Part shown: piece after piece, positions 24,325 through 54,071 of the stretch
Numbering within the stretch: the first letter of the stretch is position 1
Layout of the letters: each line of letters starts with the position of its first letter
Source: a virus
Lineage: Duplodnaviria; Caudoviricetes
IMG/VR virus record: IMGVR_UViG_3300033146_005800
Coordinates: 1-55,252 of that record
DNA: 55,252 nucleotides
Direction: 5' to 3' (one strand)
Position numbers and translations under genes: made by a program
The notes under the pieces: generated by a model
Seen by the model: the letters and a program-made list of their open reading frames with translations, nothing else
The model's database searches: none
Told to the model about the DNA's origin: nothing

Positions 24325-26049
24325 TTATGTTATTGCTTTAATCAAATCTCCAACAATTACAAATGTTTCATCTTCCGAAGCATAAACTATACTATCCGAG
24401 GATACAGTCAGTGGAATTCCTGAAATGTCGTTAATTACTGCATCTTTTAAATATAAAGAAGTGAATGGTTCCGCCCTAATGAATAATTGTTTATCTTTAG
24501 GAGTTACATCCGGGATAGGAAGAATAACCTCAACGTTATTTAATTTACCATAACCAGATTGTCTGGTAGACAATCTATTAATTAAAGCATTTTTTATGTA
24601 ACTATCTATATTCTTTCTAAGTTTTAGACACATATAAGAGGAAAATGGACCATGTCTAGTATCACCAATTCTATTATATGGCAAGTAATGTTGATGCAAT
24701 AATTTTGAACCAAACAATTGAATTAAAAAATATAAAAAATTTGGACTCTCTTTGTCTATCTGCACTTTTTTAATATTACGAAAAAGATACTCAATAGATA
24801 ACAAATCGGGATATTCAGAATCTATGAAATCAAATGCTTCTGTTTCACTCATAACCGGTGCCAAAGCTGATAAATATCTAATAAACTCATCCAAATCAGC
24901 AGTATTTCTTAGTATATGCTTCTCTCTACTAGAATAATTAGCCCTGCCAGCCAGGAGATACATCCTCTGATTAACAGTTAAATCTTCCCAATTACTTAGA
25001 TCATTTTCAATTTCTATAGGTGGTGGACACATCTGACATACAGAATCAAAAGTTTCAGAGTCTATATTTTGCAAAACCAAGTATTGATAGAATCTTTTCT
25101 CATTATCACATGATTCCGACTGATTGAATAAACTTCCGGTGTTCAAAAGTGCTCTAGATATTATAATGGACCAGTAATCAGATTTACTAGGGTATATCAT
25201 ATCCGGAAGTAAAGTTAAATTATTAAGCAGATAGTCCTTATCCTGTAGTCCTCCAAATAATAAAGTTTTGGATACCATTAAAATGGTCTTTCTGACATTT
25301 GGATGCAAATAATTAAAAAATCTAGACAATTCTCCGGCAAAACCTGGATGATCCTCCTTACGTATAGTTTTTAATTTATATTCCTCTTGAACAGGTTCCT
25401 TTTGAAATGACTCTTTTTCTAAAGAATCTTGTTCGTTAAATATCCGTGGATACGTCGTTGGATTTTGAAATTGAATTGTTTTTTTAATATTTAACGCAAA
25501 AGGACTTTTTTTAATATTCCAAGGTCGCACTCTAGAATTATTTGTTGGAACCTTTGGTTTTATAACCCTTTCCATAACCGGCTCTATAACTTTTTTAGGG
25601 GGTATCGACTCATAAACATCCTGATTATACTTCAAAGAGGGTTGAATATAAGTTTTCAAAGTAACTTCAACAATTTTATTCTTTGTAAGATAGTAGGCAT
25701 AGAGATTCTGAAATAATCGTTGTCTTTTGTGTCTGTAAGTTTCCAATATGTCTGATCTAGTATATCTATTGTAAATAACCGGAATACTTCTTGGACTTTT
25801 GGAAAAGAGACTTTGTGTGAGTTCTTTAACATTTTTACTGCTCAAAAACTTGCGTAAAAGCTTATGTCCTGGAATTCTGGTAAGATATGGTAGGGTATTT
25901 AATTCTGCTTCCTGTATCATTTTCTTAACTTTTTCTATGTCAACATGATATTTTCTAACAAAAACACCATTAGGACCCCTAACCGCACGTAAAACTGGAA
26001 CCAATCCAGGACTGGAAGGATCAAAACCTTTAAGAAGATCTTCTGACAT
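24325..26049 (-). CDS. Hypothetical tagged protein with possible degenerate C-terminal ART-like domain
   Basis: N-terminal LVPVLRAVRGPNGVFVRKYHV tag in register with the tags of the ART array; weak C-terminal similarity to the 512-aa and 685-aa ART proteins. Confidence 0.55.
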   Translation of the reverse strand: MSEDLLKGFDPSSPGLVPVLRAVRGPNGVFVRKYHVDIEKVKKMIQEAELNTLPYLTRIPGHKLLRKFLSSKNVKELTQSLFSKSPRSIPVIYNRYTRSDILETYRHKRQRLFQNLYAYYLTKNKIVEVTLKTYIQPSLKYNQDVYESIPPKKVIEPVMERVIKPKVPTNNSRVRPWNIKKSPFALNIKKTIQFQNPTTYPRIFNEQDSLEKESFQKEPVQEEYKLKTIRKEDHPGFAGELSRFFNYLHPNVRKTILMVSKTLLFGGLQDKDYLLNNLTLLPDMIYPSKSDYWSIIISRALLNTGSLFNQSESCDNEKRFYQYLVLQNIDSETFDSVCQMCPPPIEIENDLSNWEDLTVNQRMYLLAGRANYSSREKHILRNTADLDEFIRYLSALAPVMSETEAFDFIDSEYPDLLSIEYLFRNIKKVQIDKESPNFLYFLIQLFGSKLLHQHYLPYNRIGDTRHGPFSSYMCLKLRKNIDSYIKNALINRLSTRQSGYGKLNNVEVILPIPDVTPKDKQLFIRAEPFTSLYLKDAVINDISGIPLTVSSDSIVYASEDETFVIVGDLIKAIT

Positions 26050-26056
26050 AATTTAC

Positions 26057-26437
26057 CTACATATTACAAAAAAATTGTTTAGCAGATTCTGGATCGATGC
26101 CCTCTTTACCAAAATCTTCAAAATCTTTAACATTTTTGAAACTACGTGAATCATCTGGAACCATTCTATTATCAGTATCACTGTCATCCTGTTTTTTCTT
26201 GTTTTCGCCAGTTTTATCAACTTTTGGGCGTTTCCTTGATCTTGTTCCCTCGGATTCAGTAGTTTTTTTCTGTCCTGTTGTGTCCTCACCTTTGCCAGGT
26301 TTCCTTGGTTTGGATTGCTTTTTAAGAGGATCTACGTAGAATGTCTGTGAAAATGTTCCCTGATCGGGTTTAGTAACCGTTTTTTTGACAGGAATCAATT
26401 TTTCAATTTTCTTTTTTCCCCAACCTTTTTTAGCCAT
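26057..26437 (-). CDS. Small charged, disordered protein carrying the N-terminal hairpin tag
   Basis: ATG 26437 after GGAG; MAKKGWGKKKIEKLIPVKKTVTKPDQGTFSQTFYVDP followed by a K/D/T-rich tail. Confidence 0.65.
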   Translation of the reverse strand: MAKKGWGKKKIEKLIPVKKTVTKPDQGTFSQTFYVDPLKKQSKPRKPGKGEDTTGQKKTTESEGTRSRKRPKVDKTGENKKKQDDSDTDNRMVPDDSRSFKNVKDFEDFGKEGIDPESAKQFFCNM

Positions 26438-26480
26438 TGACGACTCCAATTTAATGTGTAATTTAAGAATGTTTTATCGA

Positions 26481-27272
26481 TTAGGTTTTCATTATAAAAT
26501 TAAAAACAAAATCCGAGTTCACATTTGTTACATCAATCGATTTTTGATTATTGTATAATGTACATTCAAATGACATTCTATTATTATGATGTAACAAATA
26601 CGTTTTAACAGAATGATGTCCAGAATAAACCGAAAGACCATTAACCAATCCCACAAAAAATGTGCATCGTGACATTAGAAAATGAATTTGTGCCAAAGAT
26701 AAATCAAAATATCGATAATTTGCATCAGTTAATCCAAAATCTGAACTAGTACCAATCTGTACCACATCATATCCTTCCCTAGAAAATAAAGTGCATAATG
26801 AATTCAAATTACTATAACCCCAATCTTTATGTTTTGACAATTTGGTATTTTTTCCACAAGAGGGCATCAAAATAAATTTACGCGGAACTTTCAAAGTCTT
26901 CACTGTGCCAATATAATGAGAGTACAAACCAGAATTATAATCAATTTGCAATCCTGTTTTGGCATTTACAGAATTCACCATACTATGTATGAGATTATTA
27001 CTTGTCCTAAAATTATAAATAATATGTCCAGTAACTATGTCATAGAATTTTTTCAACTCTAATGAATTAGTATTAAAAAATATTTTATTAAATTTAACAT
27101 CAAAATTTTCAACTATATCAATAATCAATTGAGATGCAGAACCTGTCTTTCCAGCCAAATTCAAATCCAATATACAATCAGGGTAGGACTTTTTTAACAT
27201 TTTAAGTACCGACATTGTCATAATCCAATCACCAACACCAAAAGCATCCCTGTATGCAAGTATTTTTAACAT
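26481..27272 (-). CDS. GT9-like (heptosyltransferase-like) glycosyltransferase
   Basis: GVGDWIM, K-x-W, VVQIG, L-x6-M-x2-C-x-FFVG-x-V-x-GL motifs. Confidence 0.75.
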   Translation of the reverse strand: MLKILAYRDAFGVGDWIMTMSVLKMLKKSYPDCILDLNLAGKTGSASQLIIDIVENFDVKFNKIFFNTNSLELKKFYDIVTGHIIYNFRTSNNLIHSMVNSVNAKTGLQIDYNSGLYSHYIGTVKTLKVPRKFILMPSCGKNTKLSKHKDWGYSNLNSLCTLFSREGYDVVQIGTSSDFGLTDANYRYFDLSLAQIHFLMSRCTFFVGLVNGLSVYSGHHSVKTYLLHHNNRMSFECTLYNNQKSIDVTNVNSDFVFNFIMKT

Positions 27273-27304
27273 AAAAATCCCCTAGAGAAAAATAAAATAA
27301 TGTC

Positions 27305-27326
27305 ATAAATACTAATTAGTATTTAT
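27305..27326. promoter_or_regulatory. Perfect 22-bp palindrome in a divergent intergenic region
   Basis: ATAAATACTAATTAGTATTTAT equals its own reverse complement and contains back-to-back ATACTAA motifs. Confidence 0.6.
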
Positions 27327-27416
27327 AATTAAAAAATAATTTCATAAATTTTAAAAACTAATTGACTTTAATTACAATTAAGTGTAATACTATAATTTTT
27401 TACCTATTTTATAAGG

Positions 27417-28484
27417 ATGATTCATGGAGGATACAGAATGCTGCCAAAAGTAAACGGAGACCAACGATTTATTTTTATACAAACCAAATCCAACAATAAA
27501 AGAAAGAAAAGAGTCGGGAAAAAAAGAAATAAGCATACATTGCCCATACGAGAACGTGCAATGCACATACTTGTGACAGGAAAAATTAAAGACTACACAC
27601 ATCCAAAAGAAGTCGATCCCTTCTGGGATACACTATACAGACAATACGAACATCTAATCTACTCGGAAATATATCTAAGATCGACAATAAAGCAGTATTG
27701 TATTGATGGGATAGACTTCAATTCGGAATCAATTGCCGTTTTATTAAAAACTCTACAGGTAATAACAGAAAGAAAATTGCAATTAATCACATATATGTCT
27801 AATTTTATGTTCATAATGTATGGTTCGGTTATGAAATCTAGATTCTATGGATGGATGCAGTATTCACAAAAATTCACCTCTAAATTTAATGAAGTGTCGA
27901 TTCAATTATTAAATAAACTAAAATTTGACGCAAATAAAACCCGATGTTCCGTTTATTACTATCAAGCATTTTGGTTGTGTGGACTTTCCATAATCGGTGA
28001 TATAAGAAAGCAATTAACCACCACCTGCAATTTAGAAATGGATATGGATAGAGGCACATTAAATATTCCTATAGACTCAAAACGGGAGACAAAGAAAAGA
28101 ATAGAAGGTGAAAATACATATACGGATTCTATATATGAGGAATTGCAAAGTATGCAAAAGATATATCATAATATGAAAATAGAAAACGATGCAGATCAAG
28201 TACAAAAAAGTACTATTGGTATAGACAATGGTGAAGAAAAAAGTCCTGAAATAATTTTTATAGAGAATGATGGTGTTCTAGACAGACAAAGTAGAGCAAA
28301 ACTAATTATTGCAAATCTGTTAGAGCAGATAGATTTGACCACAGATTCACTTTACAAAAGCACAGAAAGATCATTATTAAAAATAGGAAGATTTTTAAAG
28401 AATAAAATAAAAAAGGGGGTTATAAATATAAAGGAGGAAGATTTATTATTTTTAAAGGAGCAATATTTGAAGGGTGAATTATAA
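27417..28484 (+). CDS. Divergent sigma-factor-like protein
   Basis: LY-x2-YE-x-LIY and EVSIQLLNKLKFDANKTRCSVYYYQ...IIGDIRK resemble sigma70 region 2; true start may be ATG 27438 after GGAGG. Confidence 0.5.
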   Translation: MIHGGYRMLPKVNGDQRFIFIQTKSNNKRKKRVGKKRNKHTLPIRERAMHILVTGKIKDYTHPKEVDPFWDTLYRQYEHLIYSEIYLRSTIKQYCIDGIDFNSESIAVLLKTLQVITERKLQLITYMSNFMFIMYGSVMKSRFYGWMQYSQKFTSKFNEVSIQLLNKLKFDANKTRCSVYYYQAFWLCGLSIIGDIRKQLTTTCNLEMDMDRGTLNIPIDSKRETKKRIEGENTYTDSIYEELQSMQKIYHNMKIENDADQVQKSTIGIDNGEEKSPEIIFIENDGVLDRQSRAKLIIANLLEQIDLTTDSLYKSTERSLLKIGRFLKNKIKKGVINIKEEDLLFLKEQYLKGEL

Positions 28485-28991
28485 GATTTTAAATCTTTTA
28501 ACATTCGATTCATTGGAATAACTTAAAATCTCACTCATCTGATCATTAACATCAGTTGTGCCTGCTGAAAGTAAAAGTTCGGATATACATTCGGAGTCAC
28601 TCAATTTACAATGTCCAAAAATAACGTCAGGATTTAAAATGGCACCTTCTGCAAAAAGTAGCAATGATAAATCCGATAAAACTCTTTCGGAATATTCCTC
28701 ATTTGTTACAATTGTTCTTAAATAATCCTTAGATACAGAAGTTCCAATTTGTTTTATAGTCCAATATAACCAAGTAGATGGATCTTCAGGTGAACCCTCT
28801 GTACTAAAATAGGAAGTTTGTCGTCTCCAAAAATATCTAGAAAAATTGAATGGATCTTTAAGTCCAGTAAATATTTGTCCTTCATATGGATAAACCAAAA
28901 AATATAAATCTTTAATACTATAAGATTCTGGAAGTATTGACTTAGCATATTTGACGTTTTCATTTGGTTCTAATTTATTTAGTCCAGACAT
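28479..28991 (-). CDS. Hypothetical protein
   Basis: 170-aa ORF abutting its upstream gene. Confidence 0.65.
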   Translation of the reverse strand: MSGLNKLEPNENVKYAKSILPESYSIKDLYFLVYPYEGQIFTGLKDPFNFSRYFWRRQTSYFSTEGSPEDPSTWLYWTIKQIGTSVSKDYLRTIVTNEEYSERVLSDLSLLLFAEGAILNPDVIFGHCKLSDSECISELLLSAGTTDVNDQMSEILSYSNESNVKRFKIL

Positions 28992-29435
28992 TTAAATCCT
29001 CATCAAATTATGTAAATTGTTGGAAAACAATTTTTCATGTTCTTCGAAAGAGAACAATTCAATCTTATTTAAAGACGTTCTCTTTTTCTTAAGAACTGAA
29101 GCATAAATTCTGTGTGAAATTTTTTTCCAATTACTTCTATTAAAAGGCATACTAAATGGAAAAAGTCTATATACAAGAACCCCCATTTTGTCAAGATCTT
29201 TTAATGAGGATTCTAATTCATATTTTATATCGGAATCAGTCTTATATGGATCCGATTGCGAACCAACAAGAATCAAATCAGATAACCATTTTGCAAATGG
29301 CATAGACATATTAGTACCAGACTGAACAAAAAAATCCGAAATAATGGACATTGGCTTTTCGTCTATCCTGACTTGCTCAGTTGGAAGCATGTAAAAATCA
29401 TTTATCAATATTGTATCACAAGGGTTAGTAATCAT
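28992..29435 (-). CDS. Hypothetical protein
   Basis: 147-aa ORF in the operon, with AAGG RBS. Confidence 0.65.
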   Translation of the reverse strand: MITNPCDTILINDFYMLPTEQVRIDEKPMSIISDFFVQSGTNMSMPFAKWLSDLILVGSQSDPYKTDSDIKYELESSLKDLDKMGVLVYRLFPFSMPFNRSNWKKISHRIYASVLKKKRTSLNKIELFSFEEHEKLFSNNLHNLMRI

Positions 29436-29456
29436 ATATTACCTTGTCCTTTCAAT

Positions 29457-30893
29457 TTATCTACGTGCACCATGAAAAGATGGTGACTGACTTTTCAAAC
29501 AAGTTTTATTTATCATCAACATAAATTTTTTCTGTGCAGGATCTGTTATACCTAGGGCATCAGTAAATGAATTGAACCAATCTCTCATAACATCGGAATC
29601 TGGAGTATTTTCATGTAAAGCACGTAATGGACTCCGAGAATAGGCACTTGGACCACTAGTAGAAGATCTTCTATAACGAGGAGTCCCAGGTAATTGTATA
29701 AGTCCGCTATTTCTGTTTCGATTTGGTGCAATCGGAAAATTATCTAAATCTTTACCAAACCCAACTAAATCATTAGTCATTTTACCAACCAAAGATAACT
29801 GATTAGCTAAAAAAGCTGAATTGGAAATTGCTCCTGGATGTCTATACTCCATTCTTTTCGTAGCACTATCCATACGAAAATTATTTCTACCTTCATCATA
29901 TGAACCAGAAACACCCAAATAATCCTGACTATTGTACCTATCACCATGTCTACCCATCATATCCATTATTAATCCAACACTATTCAAATAAGATGAGGCA
30001 TTGGGTCTATTATTGAAATTCAATTCTGGAATAGTCGTACTAATATGCATACCAGCTGACTTGTCCATAATTCTATCATTTGGATGTATAAGTCCTTCTT
30101 TTTCCCATGCAGCGAATTGCATATCTGCCGCCATTATTAAGTTGGATTGCGGTGTAGCACCCAAAACAACTTCCTGTGGATTTCTGCCTGGTCTACTTTG
30201 TATAGATCCATCGTAGTAGGCTTTATATGAGGTTGAACTACGACCCATATCATAACTCATCATACTAGCAATATCTACTCCGAAATGCTTCTTTACAGGA
30301 TTCCTGGTTAAAGAATTAAAACTAATGTCAATTGCATCCTTCTGAAAACGACCCTCATACTCAATAGAAAAATAATTTGGTGACATTCCAAAATTTGGCA
30401 TAAACACACCTTTTCTGGAACTCAATGGAAGAATGGCACCATGACGTAGAGTTCTTTTTAGATTATCTCTACCCAAAGGTTCACCTTTTAAATTGGTTAT
30501 CACCATATTATCCAGATCCAAACCTTTAGTGAATCTAGATCTATTAATATTAGAAATTTCCCCCCTAAAATCCTGTAATCTGGTAGCATTCAGAGCCGAA
30601 CCTTTACCAAAAGCCCATGATTCTGCTCTAAACTTTTTGAATCCAGGTTCATAAGTCATCATGGTTAACTTATCACCTTCTATACCAGTTATATAAGGAA
30701 CTGAGGATACTTTATCGGGCATTTGGTAATCAAGTCCTGCTTTAGCCTCAAAGAACCTTTTATTGGACAAACGATCAACATTTTTCATATTAGTAGTTGA
30801 GGCAGCATCAAAAGCTGCAGGATTAGACTCAACATGGACACTATGTTTCTCTAATAATGCACTGGTGTACATGGACATCTCATAAGTGTTCAT
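29457..30893 (-). CDS. COOH-NH2 ligase type 2 (amidoligase-like), divergent paralog
   Basis: FSIEYEG, YDGSI...QEVV, SAGMHIS and MEYRHPG motifs. Confidence 0.7.
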   Translation of the reverse strand: MNTYEMSMYTSALLEKHSVHVESNPAAFDAASTTNMKNVDRLSNKRFFEAKAGLDYQMPDKVSSVPYITGIEGDKLTMMTYEPGFKKFRAESWAFGKGSALNATRLQDFRGEISNINRSRFTKGLDLDNMVITNLKGEPLGRDNLKRTLRHGAILPLSSRKGVFMPNFGMSPNYFSIEYEGRFQKDAIDISFNSLTRNPVKKHFGVDIASMMSYDMGRSSTSYKAYYDGSIQSRPGRNPQEVVLGATPQSNLIMAADMQFAAWEKEGLIHPNDRIMDKSAGMHISTTIPELNFNNRPNASSYLNSVGLIMDMMGRHGDRYNSQDYLGVSGSYDEGRNNFRMDSATKRMEYRHPGAISNSAFLANQLSLVGKMTNDLVGFGKDLDNFPIAPNRNRNSGLIQLPGTPRYRRSSTSGPSAYSRSPLRALHENTPDSDVMRDWFNSFTDALGITDPAQKKFMLMINKTCLKSQSPSFHGARR

Positions 30894-30920
30894 AATACTA
30901 AAAAATCCTCTATAATGTAA

Positions 30921-33900
30921 CTAACCCTCAAATCTGCCCCCATCCTGACTACATTTTTGTTGCATTTCCCATAAAAATTGTTGACTTTTCGGATTTTTTA
31001 TTCCAAGAAAGTCATTAACAACCTGTGCAAATGCATTTCTATTTCCCCCAAAATTGCTAGAAGTAGGGGGAATAAGTACACCCGTGTGTGCAAAAGCACC
31101 ACTCCTCATGGCTCCTTGATAAATGTCTCCGGCTAATTTAGAACTAATTGCCATAGATGCCAATACATGATCCCCTCCAGGTATATGCATTGGGGCTCTA
31201 TATTCCATAACCCCAGCCAATTGAAGTTTGTGCATACCAATAGATTTATACTTAGCTAATTTTCCCGGATGGTCATCCATGTGCATGGAAACTGGATAGT
31301 AATGTTTTCCTTTGTTTCTATAAAAATCATATTCATTCATTCCACTATTTCCAGCTGGACGAAATCTGGAAATAGATTGTGACCACATTTGTCTGCCATG
31401 TTCGGTGGCAGGGGATTGTCTGGCTTGTCTATTTAATCTTTCCGGCTGAACAGTAAGATTGTAAGGACTAAAGCCCCCTCCATAAGTATCTACAGGACCA
31501 GTCCAGGCTTTGTATCTCCTGTCCGGAGAAGTCATTCTTTTTACAAGATCTTCATTAAGTCGCATGTAGTCTGTAGTAAATTTAAATCCATCCTTCCGAT
31601 GATTCTCCGGTATAGACCCCATATTTACATGAACACCAGACGGATCCCATCTATTAGGACCTCTATGAACTGCAGGAACGTCACCCATAGCTTTCAATCC
31701 TTCACCCATCAGGTATCCTGCTTTAAAAGCCCTAGTACCAGACATTATTGGACTAATATATTCTAATCCACCCCCATATATAGATGGATCTCTAACGGTC
31801 TCGTAATCACCGTTAAAGCCCATTTTATCAATGTCATAACCGTAATCTCGTCTTATATTGTTATGTAATTGACGCATTGATTCAGTTCTGGAACTTTCGA
31901 TCTCTATACCAAATGTAAAATCCGGATTGGTATAACTAGGCAGAAAAATGGCATCTCGTCCTTTAATCGGAACAATATAACCATTACCCATGGCATCATT
32001 CATCGAAAGATTAGTATTAGTCAATCTCCAATTGTCGGGATTAGGATCCATATCTGGAGTTGGTGTACGATGCAAACTTTCACTTATGTTTCGACGACCA
32101 AAATGAGGTCTATTAAAGGAACTTGGCTGATTTCCAGCTAAACCAGACGCAATATTATAAGCAGCTGTCACAGGATTATCTAACATCCATAATTGTCCAC
32201 CTTCACTGGATGTGCCAATAATAGCTCCACCCAACATTGCCCTTTTCTTCATTTCTGGCGATATATTTGGATCATCTAAAGCCATAACTTTGAAATCAAA
32301 ATTATTCTCAGATAAGTATCCCTTACCTACATTATTATAAAACTTTCTATCTGCATCAGAAGTACGACCAAAACTATTTTGAATTTCTCTAAGTTTATTT
32401 ACCGCATCGAGTGTACCCCTAGTAGCAGCTATATTATCGACAGACATTGAATGTTCACTTCCACCTATTGGGAATCTTTTCTCAATACTTTCAAAATCCC
32501 GCTGAGATAATTCATGAACATTATTGGTATTTACCTCGTCAGCAGGTTGTCCATGAAGAAGTCTCTCATCGTATTCACGTCTGGAAGCTTCATCAAAATC
32601 ATCAAAAGTTATATTATAAGCACCATCTTCTGTAAAAGGAGATGGTGAGGAATCGAAAATGTCTGTCTGTGAATCAGACAAACTTTCAACATTGTCTCTA
32701 CTAATAGGAGTATCAGGATCTAGAGACTCGGCAAAATCGCGAATAGCGTCATCCATAGAAGTTTCTATGAATTGTGAACCCCCCTCTACGTTATTTCTAT
32801 TTATACGATCATTCCAAGTCTCCTCAGCAGTCAGATTACCCATATCTGGCTGATTAGAAGTAGATGAACTAAGTTCACTAGCTTCAGGTCGATTTACTGC
32901 GTCACTAGTACGTATACTTCCTAAACTGGAATGTACTCTCTCATTTGAGATTTCTCCGGTATCTCTATCCATATTATGACTAGTAACATCATAACCATGA
33001 ATACTCGCTAATTGACTAGCCATTGTTCCAGATCGTGTTTCTTCCAAGGAACTCATAACATCTTCATCATTAATAAGAGATGATTGAGGTACACCATATC
33101 TATTATCAAGGTCTATACCTTCTAAACCTATTGTACTGGGATTTAATTGTTGTCTATTAATGTAACTATCATCAAAATCCTGCAAACCCTGATAAAGAGT
33201 ATCGGCAGAATGTTTAGTTCTCATTAACGAATCCATAATGGTTCTGTGCATTTCTGGATCCGCATTAGTGCCGGCGGGACCAAGTGCTTCTATAAGATTA
33301 TTCGCAGAAGGACCCATTCTTCTTCTTAAATTGGAATCTTGCCAACTTTGAGGATTATTCTGTATACCACTAAATTCACCGCCTTGAGGTCGCCCATAAA
33401 GGTCATGTAAACCCATGAATTGGGACATATGTAACATGCTTCTATCTGCAAAATCCGTAGACCTATCCGGAGATTGTGCTAAAAATTGTGAGGCAAATTG
33501 AAAATCAGTTTTATTTCTCAATTTGCCATCGGCAAGGGTATTCAACATTTCAGGATTACCCATTGCCATAACACCCATATAAGAATTAAAAGCATGTAAC
33601 GCCCTAATAGATTTTTTATGGGCCAAATTAGATTGATCAGATCCATATAAGTTATCTTTAGAAGTTACTATATGAAATCTTCCAACAGCGGGATTTTGAA
33701 ACTGCATCGAGGGTACACTGGATCGCATTGAGGCATACGTAGCGGCAGAATTCATATGTCGCTCCGCTTGTGCAAAATTATTAGATGCACGACCTACAGT
33801 CATAGAGGTGATTAAAGCATTGGAAGTCTGATTAAAAGCGACAACACTTATGTCACTTGAATTAACCAAAGGTGATGTAAAATGTTCTAATTCCTGTATA

Positions 33901-33974
33901 AATCCCCTTAGGCTATTAGAACTTTGATGTGCTCCTCTTGCATTTTGATAAAAGTAATCAAAAAATCCTGACAT
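30921..33974 (-). CDS. Large protein with C-terminal COOH-NH2 ligase type 2 (amidoligase) domain
   Basis: FTFGIEIE, RDPSI...GLEYISPI, SGVHVN, KY-x2-I and MEYR; about 650-aa M/N/S/D-rich N-terminal region. Confidence 0.82.
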   Translation of the reverse strand: MSGFFDYFYQNARGAHQSSNSLRGFIQELEHFTSPLVNSSDISVVAFNQTSNALITSMTVGRASNNFAQAERHMNSAATYASMRSSVPSMQFQNPAVGRFHIVTSKDNLYGSDQSNLAHKKSIRALHAFNSYMGVMAMGNPEMLNTLADGKLRNKTDFQFASQFLAQSPDRSTDFADRSMLHMSQFMGLHDLYGRPQGGEFSGIQNNPQSWQDSNLRRRMGPSANNLIEALGPAGTNADPEMHRTIMDSLMRTKHSADTLYQGLQDFDDSYINRQQLNPSTIGLEGIDLDNRYGVPQSSLINDEDVMSSLEETRSGTMASQLASIHGYDVTSHNMDRDTGEISNERVHSSLGSIRTSDAVNRPEASELSSSTSNQPDMGNLTAEETWNDRINRNNVEGGSQFIETSMDDAIRDFAESLDPDTPISRDNVESLSDSQTDIFDSSPSPFTEDGAYNITFDDFDEASRREYDERLLHGQPADEVNTNNVHELSQRDFESIEKRFPIGGSEHSMSVDNIAATRGTLDAVNKLREIQNSFGRTSDADRKFYNNVGKGYLSENNFDFKVMALDDPNISPEMKKRAMLGGAIIGTSSEGGQLWMLDNPVTAAYNIASGLAGNQPSSFNRPHFGRRNISESLHRTPTPDMDPNPDNWRLTNTNLSMNDAMGNGYIVPIKGRDAIFLPSYTNPDFTFGIEIESSRTESMRQLHNNIRRDYGYDIDKMGFNGDYETVRDPSIYGGGLEYISPIMSGTRAFKAGYLMGEGLKAMGDVPAVHRGPNRWDPSGVHVNMGSIPENHRKDGFKFTTDYMRLNEDLVKRMTSPDRRYKAWTGPVDTYGGGFSPYNLTVQPERLNRQARQSPATEHGRQMWSQSISRFRPAGNSGMNEYDFYRNKGKHYYPVSMHMDDHPGKLAKYKSIGMHKLQLAGVMEYRAPMHIPGGDHVLASMAISSKLAGDIYQGAMRSGAFAHTGVLIPPTSSNFGGNRNAFAQVVNDFLGIKNPKSQQFLWEMQQKCSQDGGRFEG

Positions 33975-33986
33975 ATTAGTAAACCA

Positions 33987-34883
33987 TTACTCTTTTTTTG
34001 CAGAAATAAAATCCTTCAATTTCTTAATTAGACGCTTTCTCCTCGAACCTATCTTATCAAAAGCAACGTTCTTATCAATGGAAGAATTGGATATCTTATC
34101 AGACAATATTCTTAGAATCATAATAGAAGACAAAGGAATATTGTCACCAAAAACATCATCACCGAGTTCCAAAGTAGACAAATCTACGTGTTCTGTAAGA
34201 AAAAGATCCAAATCCACACGCATCAAAGCAAAATCATTATGTTTTTCAATAATGGAATCAATAAAATTAATTAATTCGTTATTGCGTGCATCTGCTGTTT
34301 GTTGATTAGGAATTTCTAATGTTGAGTCAATGGATTCAACAGAAATTGTATCCTCTTCCGATTCAACAGTATTCTTTTTATGAAAAGTCTCGTCATATAG
34401 ACTTAGTAAAAAAGACTGCTCTATAGTAACGTTCCAAGAAGCCGGAATTCTAATATCCCAAACCGACATTTTCTTATTACATTGAATACTGAAATTTTTA
34501 ACGCATTGTTTGATTCTTAATTTTATGTTTTCTTTAAATAGTTGCTTTCTAATTTCTTGACGTTCTGACTCGATAGATTTCACGTCAATATCCAAAAGAC
34601 TATCTAAATTTGCACCATTAGGTGTTATCTGATTGTTATTGAATGCAAGTTCCGGAGTTCTATTCAACTTTCGATTTAACCAAATTACCATATCTGAAAC
34701 AGAAGAATTTAAGACAGACTCCTCTAAAACTATTCCCTGTCTTAACAAATTACTTTTAATTTTAACAAAAGTTGCTAGTTCTACCGGACTAATGATGTAA
34801 ATATTAGTCCAATAGTGTTTCAATTTTCTAGCAAGAGACTCTACAGACATACCAGACAGATCTAAAGACTCATCAAGACTCAT
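33987..34883 (-). CDS. Hypothetical protein
   Basis: 298-aa ORF with GAGG RBS. Confidence 0.7.
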   Translation of the reverse strand: MSLDESLDLSGMSVESLARKLKHYWTNIYIISPVELATFVKIKSNLLRQGIVLEESVLNSSVSDMVIWLNRKLNRTPELAFNNNQITPNGANLDSLLDIDVKSIESERQEIRKQLFKENIKLRIKQCVKNFSIQCNKKMSVWDIRIPASWNVTIEQSFLLSLYDETFHKKNTVESEEDTISVESIDSTLEIPNQQTADARNNELINFIDSIIEKHNDFALMRVDLDLFLTEHVDLSTLELGDDVFGDNIPLSSIMILRILSDKISNSSIDKNVAFDKIGSRRKRLIKKLKDFISAKKE

Positions 34884-34905
34884 CGAATTCCCTCATAAAA
34901 TTTTT

Positions 34906-35421
34906 TTACTTGCTAATTAAAAATCTAAAAATGGTTTTGATACTAAGATCTCCTCCTGCCAAGTCCACTTTTAACCCTTTTAAATTAGAAGCAGCTACAT
35001 CCGTATTTTCGGAAAACTGAGAACTCGATTGTAGCTGAGTAGACTTAATTACAGAAAGTGGATCCTGTGCACCACCTCTGTTGTATAAAATCTCACCTTG
35101 AATAAGATAAATGGTGTCCGTTAAAGTTACAGAATTGGTAAAAATGGTCTCAGAAATCAGTGCGTCTTCAGTTTCATAAAAATCCGATTCCACCGAAGAT
35201 GTTTCATACTCATTGTTTGAAGAATCCAAGTACTTAACGGAATAATTTGGATTATTTAAAGTAGTTATGCCTAACAGAATATTATGTATCAGTTCCACAT
35301 TAAAAGACTGTCCTGCATCTACATTACCCGTAGAATTTAACATATCAATTTCTACATCCATATAATCATTATCTTGGGTAAATCTGCTTATCATATCGTA
35401 TTCTAGATTTTGTACGTTCAT
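34906..35421 (-). CDS. Acidic hypothetical protein, possibly a virion component
   Basis: 171-aa ORF with AAGGAGG RBS and beta-rich composition. Confidence 0.65.
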   Translation of the reverse strand: MNVQNLEYDMISRFTQDNDYMDVEIDMLNSTGNVDAGQSFNVELIHNILLGITTLNNPNYSVKYLDSSNNEYETSSVESDFYETEDALISETIFTNSVTLTDTIYLIQGEILYNRGGAQDPLSVIKSTQLQSSSQFSENTDVAASNLKGLKVDLAGGDLSIKTIFRFLISK

Positions 35422-42708: not shown

Positions 42709-42731
42709 AATCAATTGAGAGGAATTAAAAT

Positions 42732-45164: not shown

Positions 45165-45177
45165 AAGGAAAACAAAT

Positions 45178-46615: not shown

Positions 46616-46706
46616 CATAGTGTATCTAATGTGTACATATCTTTCTAATAATTAAGTTTTAGGAAGAAAGAGTATTGTTTCTAAAATAACAACGTCTTGA
46701 AACATT

Positions 46707-46907: not shown

Positions 46908-46921
46908 AAGTAACCCCTTTA

Positions 46922-47890
46922 TTATTTTTTAGGTCTTCTGATAACTCTTTTCTTAATCTTAGTCTTAGGTTTAACTCTTTCAGTAGATTTTGGTGCTGCC
47001 ATTTGTGATTCATTTGGCATAGCCCGTAAATGAATGGATCTCATTTTAAACATGTCAGGATTATGATTGCCGTCGGTCATCATTGCGGCCATAGCAGTAT
47101 AATCCTGCATTGCTTTTGGCAATTTATTCGAATCCTTCTGCATATCTATAATTTCATTCTGCAAAACTTCGAATTGCATACCTCTAGGCAGCAAAAGCTC
47201 AAATTCGGAAATATTAACAGGAAGAGCTTTTGTCCCTTTTGGAAGCTCAACCTTAAACATACTTCCAAATCTCAACAAACCATCAGTTTTACTATCTCTC
47301 CACATAAAATTAGTAGAAATATCAGGTTTAACCGTTGTAGACATATACCCATTATCCTGAAAAATCTCACCAACCTTCAATTCTCTTCCTAAAGTCTCGT
47401 GAAAATCTCGTTTAGTGCCTCTAACAGCGATAGTGTCCTTTGTTAAGCCATCAGCCTTATCTATAGCCGAATCTAAGAGTCTTATATCAGGATCATCGAC
47501 ATGTTGCTTAAGATTATCTCGTAATTTTTCATTAAAACCAATTTCATTAACATAATCTCGCATTACATTATATTCCATATCCGTATAATCACCGGAAATT
47601 GGAAAACCATCCGAGTAATCCTCAAAACCCCAATCTTTGGCATCAGCTTCCCTAAAATCATTATCCATTTTCTCTACTATAGATAATCTTTTCTCATCGG
47701 GGGATTTATTACTTATATTAGAATCGTGATTCTTTCCCGTATTACTTCTATCGGACACATCCTCCATTCTTTGATGTTGTTCAACATCCTCCACTTTATC
47801 TTTTGTAACTCGTAAATGTTGAGATACATCAATCTTTTCTGAAGACTTACTCTTAATAACTTTAGGCTTTAATTTTTTTGAACCTTTCAA
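46922..47890 (-). CDS. VIP2/Alt-like ADP-ribosyltransferase with type-B N-terminal tag
   Basis: Y...N-x2-LR, LDSAI, AVRG, GYMSTT, LPKGT, EFELLLPRG (R-S-ExE); TTG start after GAGGTG. Confidence 0.9.
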   Translation of the reverse strand: MKGSKKLKPKVIKSKSSEKIDVSQHLRVTKDKVEDVEQHQRMEDVSDRSNTGKNHDSNISNKSPDEKRLSIVEKMDNDFREADAKDWGFEDYSDGFPISGDYTDMEYNVMRDYVNEIGFNEKLRDNLKQHVDDPDIRLLDSAIDKADGLTKDTIAVRGTKRDFHETLGRELKVGEIFQDNGYMSTTVKPDISTNFMWRDSKTDGLLRFGSMFKVELPKGTKALPVNISEFELLLPRGMQFEVLQNEIIDMQKDSNKLPKAMQDYTAMAAMMTDGNHNPDMFKMRSIHLRAMPNESQMAAPKSTERVKPKTKIKKRVIRRPKK

Positions 47891-47946
47891 TGAAACACCT
47901 CATTAAAATAATTTAATAATGTTTTAAATTTTAAAAGAGGGTAATA

Positions 47947-49485
47947 TTAAGGTAATTCTTGTACTTTCACTTCCCTTTCACCTTCAGACATAACAATATG
48001 TTCACTCTCTTTACCACCAAATGACCAAAATTGATTAACACCTAAAATATCATCCTTTGGTACACTTGCTTGCATAACTACACCAATACCACCTCTCATA
48101 TCCGCTGAATCCCGACCAAAACTTTTAGCTATAAATTCTGAAGACGTCCAAGAGGATATAGAATTAGAATCCGCAAATTGTGTACCATCAGGATCAGGAC
48201 GTGTTAATTCCTTTTTATTGGTTCCTCTAAACAATTTCACAGATTCAACACCTGGATGTTGTTTGTCTAAAATTGCCCTAGAAAGAGCTTTGCTAAGTAC
48301 TAAACCCCTTTTTAAATTGGACTTAATTTTATCAGGCAAATTGTCTGCTTTACCTTTCAAATTATCTTTATTACTCATTCCATGATTGGAAATAACCTCA
48401 CCACCGTAGGTATTAGCTACAAGCTGCTTTAACACTGATCCTCCATCAGAACTACTAGAATCCAACCAATCCTGCATATAATCAGAGAATGAACCTGCAT
48501 TTTCCGAGAATACATGATCTAATTCGTTCATATGTTTATCCAACAAATTATCTGGTAACGTTTTACCAAAATGATCCACTAGTTCTTTGTGTGTCTTTTT
48601 ATCCTTAATTCCACTCAATAATTCCTTAATCTTGCCCTTTTCTTTAGTCAAAGAATGATCCGGAAATTCTTTCTGTGCCTCCGAATAACTCATCTTCTTG
48701 ATAAGAGAGTTTTTAAACTGATCAGCTCCATCAATACCTTCGGAAATGAGTTGTTTTAAATCCTGTTTATCCATCCTGTTTGCAGCAAATTCAATATCAC
48801 GATGTCTACGTATCTCTCCAGATCGCAAAGCGTCTTTAGTACCATCTGAACCTTCCATATTTCGTATTACAGAAGTCCTGGTAGAATTGTACTGAAAAGG
48901 TGACAAGTCGTCTCTATCTTTATTCTTCTTAATGATATCCAATATCTTTAATCTACCCGTATCATCTGTACTACCAGATAAACTTTCCAACACACTAGAA
49001 GACGTCTCATCGTTATAAATCATTTTATTTGCTAAAGTCTCGTTGGCTCTTTCTGCAACACGTGACCTAACCTCATCAAATTTACTTGTTGACAATTTTT
49101 CTAACGTCGCATTATCTGCCCTATCAGCTATTTGTAAATTGTGTCTGGAAGTTGGAATATTTGCATCTGCATACTTTCCCAACTTATCCACTGGAGCATT
49201 TTTAATATCCTTAAGAAGACGATCACTGGCAATATAAAAAGCGTCCTCACGCGCCATATCTTCTTTAGTCATAGGAGAACTCTTTTCCGCTGATAGATAA
49301 TCCTTTACAGAGGTAATGTCTGTTACAGTTTGCTCAGAAAGAGAATCCTTTTTCTTTTTGGGACGTAGTCTACCTCCATTCTTTTCATTGCTTACATGTT
49401 GCATTCTAATATGTGGTTCTTTCTTAACTGAATTAACCGTAGTTGGTTTAACAGGCAATTTTTTTAAATTTCCCTTTCCAGACAT
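47947..49485 (-). CDS. ART-fold protein with type-A tag and HEAT-like helical repeats
   Basis: KLFRGT, SISSWTSS-x2-IA-x2-F, VPKDDIL, ESEHIV. Confidence 0.8.
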   Translation of the reverse strand: MSGKGNLKKLPVKPTTVNSVKKEPHIRMQHVSNEKNGGRLRPKKKKDSLSEQTVTDITSVKDYLSAEKSSPMTKEDMAREDAFYIASDRLLKDIKNAPVDKLGKYADANIPTSRHNLQIADRADNATLEKLSTSKFDEVRSRVAERANETLANKMIYNDETSSSVLESLSGSTDDTGRLKILDIIKKNKDRDDLSPFQYNSTRTSVIRNMEGSDGTKDALRSGEIRRHRDIEFAANRMDKQDLKQLISEGIDGADQFKNSLIKKMSYSEAQKEFPDHSLTKEKGKIKELLSGIKDKKTHKELVDHFGKTLPDNLLDKHMNELDHVFSENAGSFSDYMQDWLDSSSSDGGSVLKQLVANTYGGEVISNHGMSNKDNLKGKADNLPDKIKSNLKRGLVLSKALSRAILDKQHPGVESVKLFRGTNKKELTRPDPDGTQFADSNSISSWTSSEFIAKSFGRDSADMRGGIGVVMQASVPKDDILGVNQFWSFGGKESEHIVMSEGEREVKVQELP

Positions 49486-49622
49486 TAAGGTTTATACCCC
49501 CAATAAATTTCAAAAGGAGTGAATTCAGCATTACACTCAGTACATGTAAATTGAACTTTCGTAAAACAATCACATTTTATTCTATGATTATGATTACATT
49601 TTTTACAAGTCCACGTTAACAT
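49485..49622 (-). CDS. 45-aa Zn-ribbon protein translationally coupled to the ART gene
   Basis: MLTWTCKKCNHNHRIKCDCFTKVQFTCTECNAEFTPFEIYWGYKP; AGAGG RBS; TAATG overlap with the next ATG. Confidence 0.65.
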   Translation of the reverse strand: MLTWTCKKCNHNHRIKCDCFTKVQFTCTECNAEFTPFEIYWGYKP

Positions 49623-49629
49623 AACACAT

Positions 49630-49688
49630 CCTCTAATAATTTATAATTTTAATATTACAAAGATTACATAAAGTATGTTTTATAATCA
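49630..49688 (-). promoter_or_regulatory. Duplicated promoter/RBS block, copy 1
   Basis: CCTCTAATAATTTAYAATTTT...TATTACA...TAAAKTATGTTTTATARTCA shared with 51730-51780. Confidence 0.7.
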
Positions 49689-49880: not shown

Positions 49881-49891
49881 TTAAGTAACCC

Positions 49892-51670
49892 CTAAAAAAT
49901 TGCTAAAACTTCTTCTTCTCCAGTTAAACCAGCGGAATAAAATAAATCTGTGGCATCATGAAATTTATCGTCAAGGTAATGAAATATTCTTCCATCATCT
50001 ATCAATCTCTTGGCATCATAATCCATTTTTATACCAAAAGTAGTTGCTCTTGCCAGATCCTTATCGATATGATTACCAAAATTGTCATACTTAGTTGAAC
50101 TAGCTTGTATACCAGTAATATATTTCTCCATATTGGCAGGAATATTAATATCCATATCATAGTTCTTTTTAAACCAGTCCTTAAACTTATTTAAACTCAT
50201 ACCATTTTTCGCATTCATATATCCAGGATTTTTGGCTTCGTAATTGTGATTATCTCCATTTAATCGCTTATCCATTGCCTCATGAATTTGAATCTGATTA
50301 GAAAAAGAATTGGCTATAACATCAGACTTAGATAAACTCATCATTCCACCATCTAAGGTAATTGATCCTCCTGGATCTCTATCAAAAACAAATCCTCTAT
50401 GCAAAGTATTTTCTGCATTAAGTCTAGAACCATCCTTTCTGGATGCTCCCATTATGTAATCAGGATTTTTGGACAATACATCCTGAGTTTTAGCATAATG
50501 TGATTTCATAGAATCCGTAACAGATTTTGGTATTGATGATTTGCCATTAACTGGATATATTCCTCTAGTGCCATTGGAAAAAGCCTCTAATTTAGATTTA
50601 TTCGCAAAAGAAGTCTTTTGCTTCAAACGTCCCTGAAAAGCCTCATTAGTACGGGAAGTATTACTTTGTAAATGTGGAAACACATCACCAACAGATGCCA
50701 ACATAACGGTGGAATATTCCTCTAAATTTCTATCCCATCCAGAAATCAAAAGATCAGGATTAGCAACATCTGGAAGAGCAGAACCTTGAGGATCATAATG
50801 TTTATTGTCCTCCAAGTCAAACATAGACATTACATCTTCTCCTCTATCATTCCTATAGCCAATCCGAATCTCCATCTCATCCGCTAAATAATACAATCTT
50901 TCCGGATCTTTGGACTCAATGGTCTTCCACCTATGATCAGAGGAACCTTTTTTTGCCTGATCAAGTCTCCTATCAAAAATTTTAGATTCTCTATCAACCA
51001 CCAAAACTTCGTCAGCAATAAAATCCTCATCAACATTATCTAACATGCCATCTAAAATTGCCTGATTAAATTCCCCGACAGTATTGCTAAAAACATCATT
51101 ATCTCCAAATTCCTTGGCTGTCTTCTCATCCATCATCTTCTTATTAAATTTATCCCATGCACCAATCCTCTGATCAATCGGCACCTCCTGAACTTTCTTT
51201 GCCATAGCAACGTAAGCCTGACCTTTAACTTTCACATTAGCACTATTATCTACCAAAAGTTTATTGTCATCTCCAAATGCCAACTTACTCAAAAGATTCA
51301 TGGAATCTTTATCGTTAAGCTCCTTATCCATAACGGCTCCTAAAGATCCCTTAAACAAATCTGAGGAAGTTGCATCATGTGCATCGTAAAGTTGAATCAT
51401 AGCATTTGCTCTTGCCTCAGGACTCATATCTGAATTTTTATCAACGTGATCCTTCAATCCAATTGTAAAATCCTTCAAGTAGGAATTGGAATCTTTATTA
51501 TCTTTAGAAGGGGCTTTAAAAAATCCTTCCTCATTCTTTTTGACTTTCGGTCTAATTCTTTTGTCATCAGAAGTATTTACGTGCTGGTCTCTAATATGTA
51601 CTTTCTTTTTTAGAGGATTTACGACCGTCGGTTTAGTTGGTAACTGCTTTATTTTTCCTTTTCTAGACAT
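49892..51670 (-). CDS. ART-fold protein with type-A tag and an insertion in the catalytic domain
   Basis: TLHRGF, MMSLSKS-x2-IA-x2-F, terminal GEEEVL. Confidence 0.7.
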   Translation of the reverse strand: MSRKGKIKQLPTKPTVVNPLKKKVHIRDQHVNTSDDKRIRPKVKKNEEGFFKAPSKDNKDSNSYLKDFTIGLKDHVDKNSDMSPEARANAMIQLYDAHDATSSDLFKGSLGAVMDKELNDKDSMNLLSKLAFGDDNKLLVDNSANVKVKGQAYVAMAKKVQEVPIDQRIGAWDKFNKKMMDEKTAKEFGDNDVFSNTVGEFNQAILDGMLDNVDEDFIADEVLVVDRESKIFDRRLDQAKKGSSDHRWKTIESKDPERLYYLADEMEIRIGYRNDRGEDVMSMFDLEDNKHYDPQGSALPDVANPDLLISGWDRNLEEYSTVMLASVGDVFPHLQSNTSRTNEAFQGRLKQKTSFANKSKLEAFSNGTRGIYPVNGKSSIPKSVTDSMKSHYAKTQDVLSKNPDYIMGASRKDGSRLNAENTLHRGFVFDRDPGGSITLDGGMMSLSKSDVIANSFSNQIQIHEAMDKRLNGDNHNYEAKNPGYMNAKNGMSLNKFKDWFKKNYDMDINIPANMEKYITGIQASSTKYDNFGNHIDKDLARATTFGIKMDYDAKRLIDDGRIFHYLDDKFHDATDLFYSAGLTGEEEVLAIF

Positions 51671-51729
51671 GAATAACTCACAATTTTGAAATTACGTAAA
51701 GAATGTAAAGACTACTTAAAATTCCATCC

Positions 51730-51780
51730 CCTCTAATAATTTACAATTTTTAGTATTACATAAATTATGTTTTATAGTCA
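51730..51780 (-). promoter_or_regulatory. Duplicated promoter/RBS block, copy 2 (contains ATACTAAA)
   Basis: Near-identical to 49630-49688 apart from a 9-nt indel and a few substitutions. Confidence 0.7.
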
Positions 51781-52013
51781 TTACAATGTACATCTTTATA
51801 AGTTGCTTGGATAAAAAGTACAATAACCTGCTTTAAACCAGTTTACTAAAATTATGGCAGGCTTTTGACATTTATAAACTAACATCATATCTAAATAATT
51901 ATCGAAATCACAAATTCACCATGTTCATTTTCCAAAAGACTATCAGGAACTTATAATTCTTTAATAATTTGAATTAAAACATAGTACAAAGATATATAAA
52001 ATAGGAATTTTAT

Positions 52014-54071
52014 ATGGGAAAAATCGGTTCAATCAAAAAGAAAATAAAACCAAAGGTTAAAAAAGAAGTTACTGTCATTGGACATACAAGGATTACCAAA
52101 AAAGGTGACGTTCAACAAGTAGATACACATCAGAAAACAATGGATGTATCTATCGAACAAGATGATTTAAAAGTCAAAAGAAAACAACAAACAGGACCCT
52201 TAAAAAAAGGAAAAGGGAAAAAAACAGGATTATCAAAAGAAGAAGTTCAACAGAAAACATTTCAAGATGTTGACATTTCAAAAATTCCAGACAATCTCAA
52301 AAGTACTTATCTATCTATGCAATCTGAAAAAACTATGGACAGAGTTAATGCCGTCGAACAATTAGACGAATTAGGTTTAGAACTGGCTATGAAAGATTCT
52401 GAAAGTATAGTTCGAGACAAAATCCCAAGTAATCGCAATGCTACTCAAGACCAAATAATGAGATTAAGACAAGATTCAGATTTAATGGTAAGACGGGAGG
52501 CATTCTCAAATATAAAAAATAGAGAAGTATTAAAACAACCTTATTGGGTCGACGGGAAAAAATTTAATTCGATAAGAGAAGAAAATAATATGCAACTAAA
52601 TAATGTATACTTGAAGAGATTTCCTGAAGAGGTCCTTTCTCTACGTAACAGTGGAGAAATGGATATTAATGATCGGAAATTAGCATCGGTTATAACACCA
52701 GAAGATGCCATGAAACCCTTAACCACTAAAGGAGGAAAAAAACTTAAGAACATATTTGAACATCCCGATGAATTGGTAATAATAGAAGCGGCCAAAAATA
52801 GAAGACTTGGTTCCATGATTCATAGAATAAATTCCGACATTAAACCAAAGGATGAAGGATATGATATGATAGGCAAGTTGGAATTAAAAGATGCTAAATA
52901 CAAAAATATGGATCCAAAACATCTGGCAGAAGCTATACAAAAGGAACCGTTAAGTTTCTTTAGAGAAGTCATGGCTAAAAGAATGTCAGAACAAGGAAGA
53001 ATAGATCTAATCAAATCCACCGATAATCCTTTAGTAAAGAAGTCATTGTTGGATCAGATATCCAACCGAACATCGAAACAATTAAGCGAAGGTGAGTTCA
53101 AGAATGATCCACTTATTCAAAGAAGAGACGCTTATCGCAAATTGGAAAATACAAATGGTTTAGAAACCGATCAGCAACTTCAAGATCATTTTACAAAAAA
53201 TTTCCCAAATGTTACTAAATTGAATTCCGAAACTGCTGGAAGATTACAAAATGAAGACGACCATCAAGTATTAAAATGGGCCTCAGAAAATGGCGGAGAT
53301 TTTGATGAACCAATGAGTAAAATAGAATGGAAAATAGAAGGTTGGCACAAAAAAGCCATAAATGATTTCAACGATCCTAAAAAAGCTATGGAAAAAGCTA
53401 TGGAATATAGTGGATCAGATGCAGACAATTTGCAAAAAATCATAGATAAAGCTGCACCAAAATTCACACAAGAATATGTGCAAAATGGTTGGTTAGAATC
53501 TAGTAATGGACATGGCGCAGCTCTATTAAAAATGCAAGCTGGAGGAAAAATACACAAACATCAAAGAAAATTCGACTCTACCTCAACATTAAGTCATGAA
53601 CAAATACAAGAAAAATGGAATCAATTATCATCCAAACAAAAACAAAATCTAGATAGAGGTTACCAAGTCTCTAAGTCATTAACTCAAGTCGTACTTAATA
53701 AAGCCTTTCCCAATCAAGATTCTATAAAACTATATAGAGGAACAAGTATGAAAGAAGTTGTAGGATCTGGAAATAATATTTCTGCACAATCTAATCCTTT
53801 AAGTAGTTGGACAGAAAAACCTAAAATAGCTGGCAATTTTGCTAAATTTAATGCAGGTGGTGATGAAAAAAATCCAAATGTTGCTATAATGTCTGCCGAT
53901 ATACCAAAAAAAGATATCTTTCTTTCAAATATATTTGGTGCTATGTTCAAAACTTTTTCCAACGGTGAATATGTATTGGAAGCTAAAAATAAATTAAGAA
54001 AAATTAAAGCTGAATATACAGGTCCCTCCGAAGATGTACCAGAAAATATGTATGAAGATGAACAATGGTAA
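52014..54071 (+). CDS. ART-fold protein with type-B tag and HEAT-like repeats
   Basis: D-x4-VR repeats; KLYRGT, NPLSSWTE-x3-IA-x2-F, IPKKDIF, NGEYVL; C-terminal ~200 aa clearly paralogous to ORF 47947..49485. Confidence 0.8.
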   Translation: MGKIGSIKKKIKPKVKKEVTVIGHTRITKKGDVQQVDTHQKTMDVSIEQDDLKVKRKQQTGPLKKGKGKKTGLSKEEVQQKTFQDVDISKIPDNLKSTYLSMQSEKTMDRVNAVEQLDELGLELAMKDSESIVRDKIPSNRNATQDQIMRLRQDSDLMVRREAFSNIKNREVLKQPYWVDGKKFNSIREENNMQLNNVYLKRFPEEVLSLRNSGEMDINDRKLASVITPEDAMKPLTTKGGKKLKNIFEHPDELVIIEAAKNRRLGSMIHRINSDIKPKDEGYDMIGKLELKDAKYKNMDPKHLAEAIQKEPLSFFREVMAKRMSEQGRIDLIKSTDNPLVKKSLLDQISNRTSKQLSEGEFKNDPLIQRRDAYRKLENTNGLETDQQLQDHFTKNFPNVTKLNSETAGRLQNEDDHQVLKWASENGGDFDEPMSKIEWKIEGWHKKAINDFNDPKKAMEKAMEYSGSDADNLQKIIDKAAPKFTQEYVQNGWLESSNGHGAALLKMQAGGKIHKHQRKFDSTSTLSHEQIQEKWNQLSSKQKQNLDRGYQVSKSLTQVVLNKAFPNQDSIKLYRGTSMKEVVGSGNNISAQSNPLSSWTEKPKIAGNFAKFNAGGDEKNPNVAIMSADIPKKDIFLSNIFGAMFKTFSNGEYVLEAKNKLRKIKAEYTGPSEDVPENMYEDEQW

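Follow-up and report, generated by a model that had tools for sequence, protein, structure and literature searches.

The window analysed here is a whole virus record of 55,252 bases (IMGVR_UViG_3300033146_005800, assigned to Caudoviricetes; ~32% G+C), and six of its proteins, encoded between positions 24325 and 54071, begin with short basic N-terminal tags. The tags form three sequence families with two bearers each: Tag A on p512 and p592, Tag B on p322 and p685, and Tag C on p126 and p574. These tags are modular, have been shuffled between protein bodies and are under constraint at the protein level, and the genes that carry them share an upstream motif with structural genes. The interpretation that we favour, with a little less than even confidence, is that the three tags are virion-targeting peptides on effectors made late in infection. 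Tags A, B, and C (~30–47 residues) would then be portable modules that direct late-made cargo into the assembling virion, and the cargo would enter the next host cell together with the DNA. It would consist of at least three ADP-ribosyltransferases (ARTs), an enzyme-sized protein of unknown family, a small basic protein, and a conserved 574-residue protein. Encapsidation, and the tag as its determinant, are what we infer from the evidence below.

Tag A occupies residues 1–47 of p512 (49345–49485, minus strand; open reading frame (ORF) 47947–49485), whose body is a DRAT-like ART, and of p592 (51530–51670, minus strand; ORF 49892–51670), whose body matches nothing in Pfam or PHROG. Tag B forms residues 1–47 of p322 (47750–47890, minus strand; ORF 46922–47890), an ADPrib_exo_Tox ART with a basic C-terminal tail, and of p685 (52014–52154, plus strand; ORF 52014–54071), a DRAT-like ART and paralogue of p512. 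Tag C lies on the small, very basic p126 (26297–26437, minus strand; ORF 26057–26437), which varies in its middle and has a conserved motif at the C-terminus, and makes up residues 1–47 of p574 (25909–26049, minus strand; ORF 24325–26049), a conserved protein of unknown family located 8 nucleotides downstream of p126. The peptides quoted in an earlier note on this DNA, which had been made from the letters and ORFs alone, were found in all six ORFs at the starts it gave. These starts are backed by GGAG, GAGG or AGGA elements resembling ribosome-binding sites (RBSs); p322 starts at the TTG at 47890, and p126 at the ATG at 26437, not at the TTG at 26449. In 6/6 proteins the tag holds the extreme N-terminal position.

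For the division into families, the N-terminal 50 residues of every one of the 52 called window genes were aligned locally with those of every other. Among the 1326 pairs the top three are p512/p592 (score 129), p322/p685 (score 72), and p574/p126 (score 41), and 6630 shuffled pairs used as a control have a maximum of 52 and a 99.9th percentile of 39. The earlier note had described two tags across the six proteins, with a Tag A of four members, and this count has to be replaced by three pairs. A hidden Markov model (HMM) of the p512 and p592 tags gives p574 an E of 35 and p126 an E of 18 among the 412 window ORFs, and in hhalign the match of Tag A to the tag of p126 or of p574 has a probability below 1%. 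Between p574 and p126, the tags align in register over 27 columns (hhalign E 2e-4, probability 47%). Because the Tag A profile misses p574 and p126 while these two match each other, we treat them by sequence as a third family, Tag C. Their orthologues in a related genome (G001, described below) also stand out as a pair, with a score of 49. The regular expression that had united the four Tag A sequences was dropped as evidence for a single family, as it had been fitted to them.

Grouping the proteins by tag and grouping them by body lead to conflicting results. By pairwise BLASTP, p512 and p592 have only residues 1–47 in common, with 27/47 identical (57%, E 1e-11), and p322 and p685 only their N-termini (12/29 identical, E 0.025), as had been proposed for Tag B on the ORFs starting at 47890 and 52014. 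The common part of p512 and p685 is the C-terminal ART domain only, which is 30% identical over 205 residues (E 1e-19). Thus the closest ART paralogues do carry different tags, and the earlier description of the tags as discrete portable modules holds. Since p512 and p685 are joined by body, and p512/p592 and p322/p685 by tag, the shuffling is real and at least one exchange is required.

The ART assignments differ in strength from one body to another. The match of p322 to Pfam ADPrib_exo_Tox reaches 42.7 bits against a cut-off of 23.4 (E 5e-11), and p512 matches Pfam DRAT at 28.4 bits against a cut-off of 25. The DRAT score of p685, 18.6 bits, is under that cut-off, and its assignment comes from the BLASTP match to p512 already given. 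The reading of p592 as an ART is not supported: Pfam is empty for it, hhalign against a 30-row ART-domain profile gives a probability of 0.3%, and a language-model search returned only sub-threshold ART leads (0.80–0.83). For p574, there is no ART match in Pfam, and the language-model search was uninformative.

The tags are probably strand-turn-strand elements. AlphaFold2 on residues 1–140 of p574 predicts strands at 16–25 and 28–37, over the tag, at a mean predicted local distance difference test (pLDDT) score of 48.6, so that only the secondary structure was used from this model. The proposed beta-hairpin form is thus predicted at low confidence for the tag of p574. A model of p322 from a two-row alignment (mean pLDDT 36) was not usable.

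Protein-level constraint is seen in the comparison with G001, a 273,563-bp IMG/VR contig estimated to be 97% complete and fetched in full, whose orthologues of window proteins are 35–62% identical. Tag A is retained by its orthologue of p512 (P0002) and Tag B by that of p322 (E 4e-11 before inclusion in the profile), and the p126–p574 pair is syntenic with Tag C kept. Tag A and Tag B each occur there in a single copy, and the extra combinations p592 and p685 are therefore specific to the window phage. Identity between the two phages is 51% in the tag of p512, 30% and 19% in its linker, and 39% in its ART body; 55% in the tag of p322, 19% in the linker, and 53% and 44% in the body; 76% in the tag of p126, 27% in the linker, and 85% in the C-terminal motif; and 94% in the tag of p574, with 52–68% in the remainder. 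Different codons are used at 39–65% of the identical residues, which indicates that the constraint acts on the peptide and not on RNA or DNA.

These comparisons bear on an explanation without any targeting role. In it, cassettes of promoter, leader, and 5' coding sequence were duplicated, and the common N-termini left from them persist because the genes are then well expressed. We regard this as improbable. In its favour, the p512 unit and p592 are preceded by a common block of ~55 nucleotides that includes the TAAAACAT motif and the RBS. In the p512 unit, an ORF of 45 residues with a CxxC...CxxC pattern (49485–49622, minus strand) precedes p512, its stop overlapping the p512 start as TAATG, and before p592 this 45-codon ORF is cut to three codons. 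As leader, motif, and RBS were all duplicated, the duplication unit included non-coding sequence, and what moves seems to be a cassette of promoter, leader, and tag; new tag-cargo pairs would arise by its recombination or duplication. Against a leftover speak the conservation of the protein after synonymous sites had diverged, and tags that are conserved at least as well as the catalytic domains while the adjoining linkers decay. Moreover, the 322/685 and 574/126 pairs have no upstream duplication detectable by eye, and analogous short motifs occur in 21/41 distant ART homologues, as detailed below.

The tagged genes share their upstream motif with genes for virion and lysis proteins. The promoter-like TAAAACAT motif stands at the head of the p126–p574 unit (26469–26476, minus strand), at the same distance as in G001, 36 nucleotides upstream of p322 (47919–47926, minus strand), at the head of the small ORF and p512 (49675–49682, minus strand), 104 nucleotides upstream of p592 within the block that duplicates the p512 leader (51767–51774, minus strand), and 39 nucleotides upstream of p685 (51975–51982, plus strand). 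In the form TAAAAC[AC]T it is found 24–104 nucleotides upstream, on the same strand, of 9/52 window genes, namely those for the sheath, the endolysin, a methyltransferase, two unknown proteins, p126, p322, p592, and p685. The remaining two tagged genes are covered through their units, p574 following p126 after 8 nucleotides and p512 following the motif-headed small ORF. Counted by transcription unit, the motif heads 6/6 tagged genes against 5/46 other genes (p 2e-5). In G001 it precedes 21/385 genes, including those for the major head protein, the portal, a Kelch-repeat protein of 1824 residues, and the tagged orthologues. The G001 major head protein (L007 8466–9569) is a 367-residue protein of the phrog_138 type (E 1.8e-40) and the portal (L008 2848–4599) belongs to phrog_213 (E 1.6e-19). 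An 858-residue gene upstream of the head protein, suspected of being a protease or scaffold, was set aside as Pfam and PHROG were empty.

A presumed early block of G001 (105–157 kb, L012–L014) has a different class of upstream motif, with 29 mostly small genes (52–347 residues) each behind a sigma70-like TTGACA-N15-19-TATACT. The two G001 tagged ART orthologues lie inside this block, yet carry TAAAAC[AC]T. In the window, only a -10-like element of the sigma70-like class (TATACTAA/ATACTAAA) is found, before replication genes. By motif, the tagged genes of the window thus group with the structural genes and would be expressed late.

A second explanation is that the tags act inside the infected cell as docking peptides, recruiting several enzymes to one common target. 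This target could be DNA or RNA, the ribosome, RNA polymerase, or a compartment or assembly site built by the phage. The explanation appears unlikely to us, yet it agrees with several properties of the tags. They are strongly basic, with a net charge of +10 to +12 over the first 50 residues of p126, p512, and p592, they contain conserved His/Arg positions, and the occurrence of one tag on different catalytic bodies suits a shared address of any kind. Some ART homologues, represented by P0003, have SH3- or PUA-like N-terminal repeats in place of a tag (Pfam leads only, E 0.04–0.12). On the other hand, ARTs that share their motif with the head, portal, sheath, and endolysin genes would be made alongside head proteins. 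Modifying the host at that stage is of little value, and such an ART makes little sense unless it travels on to the next host. No nucleic-acid-binding family was matched in Pfam, and the tag profiles gave 0, 2, and 5 matches to PDB sequences, all at E >=0.4. Fusions of p512 homologues to head-associated domains also speak for virion targeting rather than for docking.

These homologues were obtained by an exhaustive HMMER search with p512, which found 41 other proteins at E <=0.001. One of them (P0038) carries Phage_Mu_F (E 1.6e-11), and two (P0018 and P0024) carry Peptidase_S78, the prohead serine protease, at or just below the cut-off. GNAT occurs in P0009 and P0029 and SAM lyase in P0024, with P0009 combining GNAT and two ARTs. 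Four other short motifs, GPxGGxYY, LVPKKVxV...G...RWV, VWVK...HYR, and QPRDxxGxW, were searched for with regular expressions composed after reading the sequences, and at least one of them is present in 21/41 homologues. The first such motif starts within the first 60 residues in 15 of these 21, and long multi-domain homologues have further copies of the motifs between their recognised domains. With these expressions, 0/437 proteins of the two phages and no shuffled homologue were matched. Further motif variants were seen by eye in P0026 and P0035. For a 37-residue GPxGG motif, the only matches were at E 0.6, to the 'zeta toxin / ParB' proteins of haloarchaeal viruses such as HVTV-1 and HCTV-5, and these count as no more than a lead. 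The main text of PMC5512222 does not describe these short motifs, and none of the papers listed by a literature string search for GPRGG with phage was relevant.

A third explanation regards the tags as inhibitory or regulatory propeptides, which would block enzyme activity in the producing cell until they are cut off, for instance by a phage protease. In line with it, a KG dipeptide lies within the first 9 residues of five of the six tagged proteins, as the earlier note had observed, and of 0/46 other genes (Fisher p 2e-6, calculated post hoc; background in G001 11/385). According to the portions of PMC5694885 that deal with T4, propeptides of that phage are cut off by the prohead protease. 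In addition, both phages encode a conserved caspase-family peptidase, which in the window has 296 residues (7658–8548, minus strand; Pfam Peptidase_C14 E 2.6e-32), lies amid recombination and replication genes, and is 55% identical to its G001 counterpart. The upstream region of this peptidase gene is without TAAAAC[AC]T, however, and the tags also occur on the non-enzymatic p126 and on unrelated bodies, with a variable linker between tag and body. We consider the propeptide explanation very improbable.

Basic proteins are not matched at random by the tag profiles. Among the 412 window ORFs the Tag A HMM retrieves only its own bearers, and in G001 a single place; the Tag B profile also finds one place in G001 and, in a collection of 5.8 billion proteins (limited to proteins sharing five-residue words), only the three known bearers. 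A word-index search with p512 returned p512 itself only, related-locus scans of viral contigs with p512 and p592 returned nothing, and tblastn with p512 and p574 found no match in 50,697 phage records. Matches of E 5–9 between the 60-residue N-terminus of p574 and unannotated mycobacteriophage frames were judged to be noise. The few tag bearers, together with the lack of phage and PDB matches, argue that the tags are not generic basic sequence. Every bearer of Tag A or Tag B recovered by these searches belongs to this phage lineage.

Several observations weigh against virion targeting. Tags A and B themselves had no tblastn match in the 50,697 phage records, and by Pfam and PHROG the tagged proteins of the window have no MuF, portal, prohead protease or other known head-association domain. 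No aligned x-x-E site of the protease type is conserved after the tags in the orthologues; S/A/G-x-E or L/I-x-E triplets are present there, unaligned between orthologues (both by eye). The resemblance of the distant LVPKKV...G...RWV motif to Tag C is in register and weak (hhalign E 0.002 and 0.013, probability 15% and 3%; HMM E 0.5–0.9). In p574, conservation runs through residues 1–130 as a whole across the four family members known, so that its tag may belong to a domain instead of being a free peptide. A metagenomic p126 orthologue of 56 residues (L022) lacks the second half of the tag. As for the upstream motif, the exact 8-mer shows no genome-wide excess over the expectation from composition (window 9 against 9.6 expected, G001 33 against 32), and the methyltransferase and several unknown genes are also headed by it. 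A role as a late promoter is suggested by its position and the set of genes behind it rather than by transcripts.

The closest known system is the N-terminal capsid-targeting sequence (CTS) of phage T4, which according to the sections of PMC5694885 on this phage is carried by Alt and the internal proteins. As described there, the CTS of Alt and of internal proteins IPI–III resembles the tags in that an N-terminal peptide, portable between cargos, precedes an ADP-ribosyltransferase as well as small basic proteins, all from late-class genes. It differs in extending over 10–20 residues to an L/I-x-E prohead-protease site, at which it is removed, whereas the tags cover 30–47 residues and no such site is evident. 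The tags also belong to three unrelated sequence classes, and are His/Arg-rich and probably strand-turn-strand. A second likeness is with the ejection proteins of giant phages (SPN3US gp53/gp54 and the phiKZ gp93 family), in which diverged paralogues keep a near-identical N-terminal peptide; in the part of PMC5694885 that treats them, gp53 and gp54 are 34% identical overall with identical N-terminal 15-mers. The bodies are paralogous there and unrelated here, and the S/A/G-x-E cleavage motif of the giant phages is not conserved after the tags. The window phage is likewise a jumbo myovirus, with a tail sheath of the phiKZ-group type (47% identical to the sheath of Pseudomonas phage PhiPA3; phrog_15433 E 7e-139). 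The phrog_138 head protein of G001, by contrast, presumably differs from the phiKZ type.

MuF-fused and polyvalent packaged effectors (Iyer et al. 2017; Jamet et al. 2017) are similar in placing an N-terminal head-association module before interchangeable effectors, often ARTs, and distant p512 homologues occur in such fusions. In the window the module is a short peptide instead of a MuF domain, and the proteins are single-effector. Head-packaged ARTs have been proposed to be common among phages, as stated in parts of PMC9503650 and PMC5512222. Head-targeting N-terminal peptides and packaged ARTs are thus already known. Encapsulin cargo-loading peptides are also short and portable and address diverse enzymes into a shell of the HK97 fold, and they are usually C-terminal and of a different sequence from the tags. 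New here are the exchange of three unrelated tag classes of ~30–47 residues among unrelated bodies in one genome, the tie of these tags to a common late-type upstream motif, and the use of further short motifs in the same positions by the same ART family elsewhere.

A wider generalisation, possible and in our opinion doubtful, is that short strand-turn-strand peptides form a general, interchangeable address code for virion cargo across tailed phages. It would comprise the three classes of the window and at least four more in the distant ART relatives, placed at the N-terminus of single effectors and before the modules of polyvalent proteins. Such a code would explain how effectors without MuF enter the capsid, and would allow the injected proteins of uncultured phages to be listed from sequence. 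Proteins injected with phage DNA decide the first minutes of an infection. If the tags are packaging signals, injected effectors could be read from sequence, cassette shuffling would be a route to new delivery combinations, and small tags could serve to load large capsids with foreign proteins, a use to which the T4 CTS is already put. Should the tags be docking peptides, a shared target of several phage ARTs would be implied.

The remaining observations concern the neighbourhood of the tagged genes and the rest of the window. The p126 orthologues (window 26057–26437, minus strand; L023 2777–3232; L022 946–1116) range from 56 to 151 residues, with a middle that is basic, repeat-rich, and hypervariable and a near-invariant C-terminal DFEDFGKxGIDPExAxQFxCNM. 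The distance from the end of this motif to p574 is 8 nucleotides in the window and zero or slightly larger in relatives. Upstream of p126, a 263-residue protein (26481–27272, minus strand) with Pfam and PHROG empty is kept in 4/4 contigs seen; by eye we take its N-terminus to be like that of heptosyltransferase-type glycosyltransferases. Megablast of 20 kb of the window against the 50,697 phage records gave no close relative. The replication set includes a family-A DNA polymerase, clamp, clamp loader, helicases, a UvsX-like recombinase, a gp32-like single-stranded DNA-binding protein, and gyrase A and B; the endolysin is an amidase. The DNA polymerase (11244–13976, minus strand) has an N-terminal domain of the uracil-DNA-glycosylase superfamily (Pfam UDG, E 8e-9). 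Consecutive genes at 16059–19222 (minus strand) encode a FolE2 GTP cyclohydrolase (E 5.7e-78), a radical-SAM protein, and a PTPS/QueD-like protein (E 1.6e-30), a row that presumably resembles a 7-deazaguanine-type pathway, possibly for DNA modification. Finally, a run of six genes at 28479–35421 (minus strand; 171, 298, 1017, 478, 147, and 170 residues), with Pfam and PHROG empty and TAAAACCT at its head, may encode virion proteins of the lineage.

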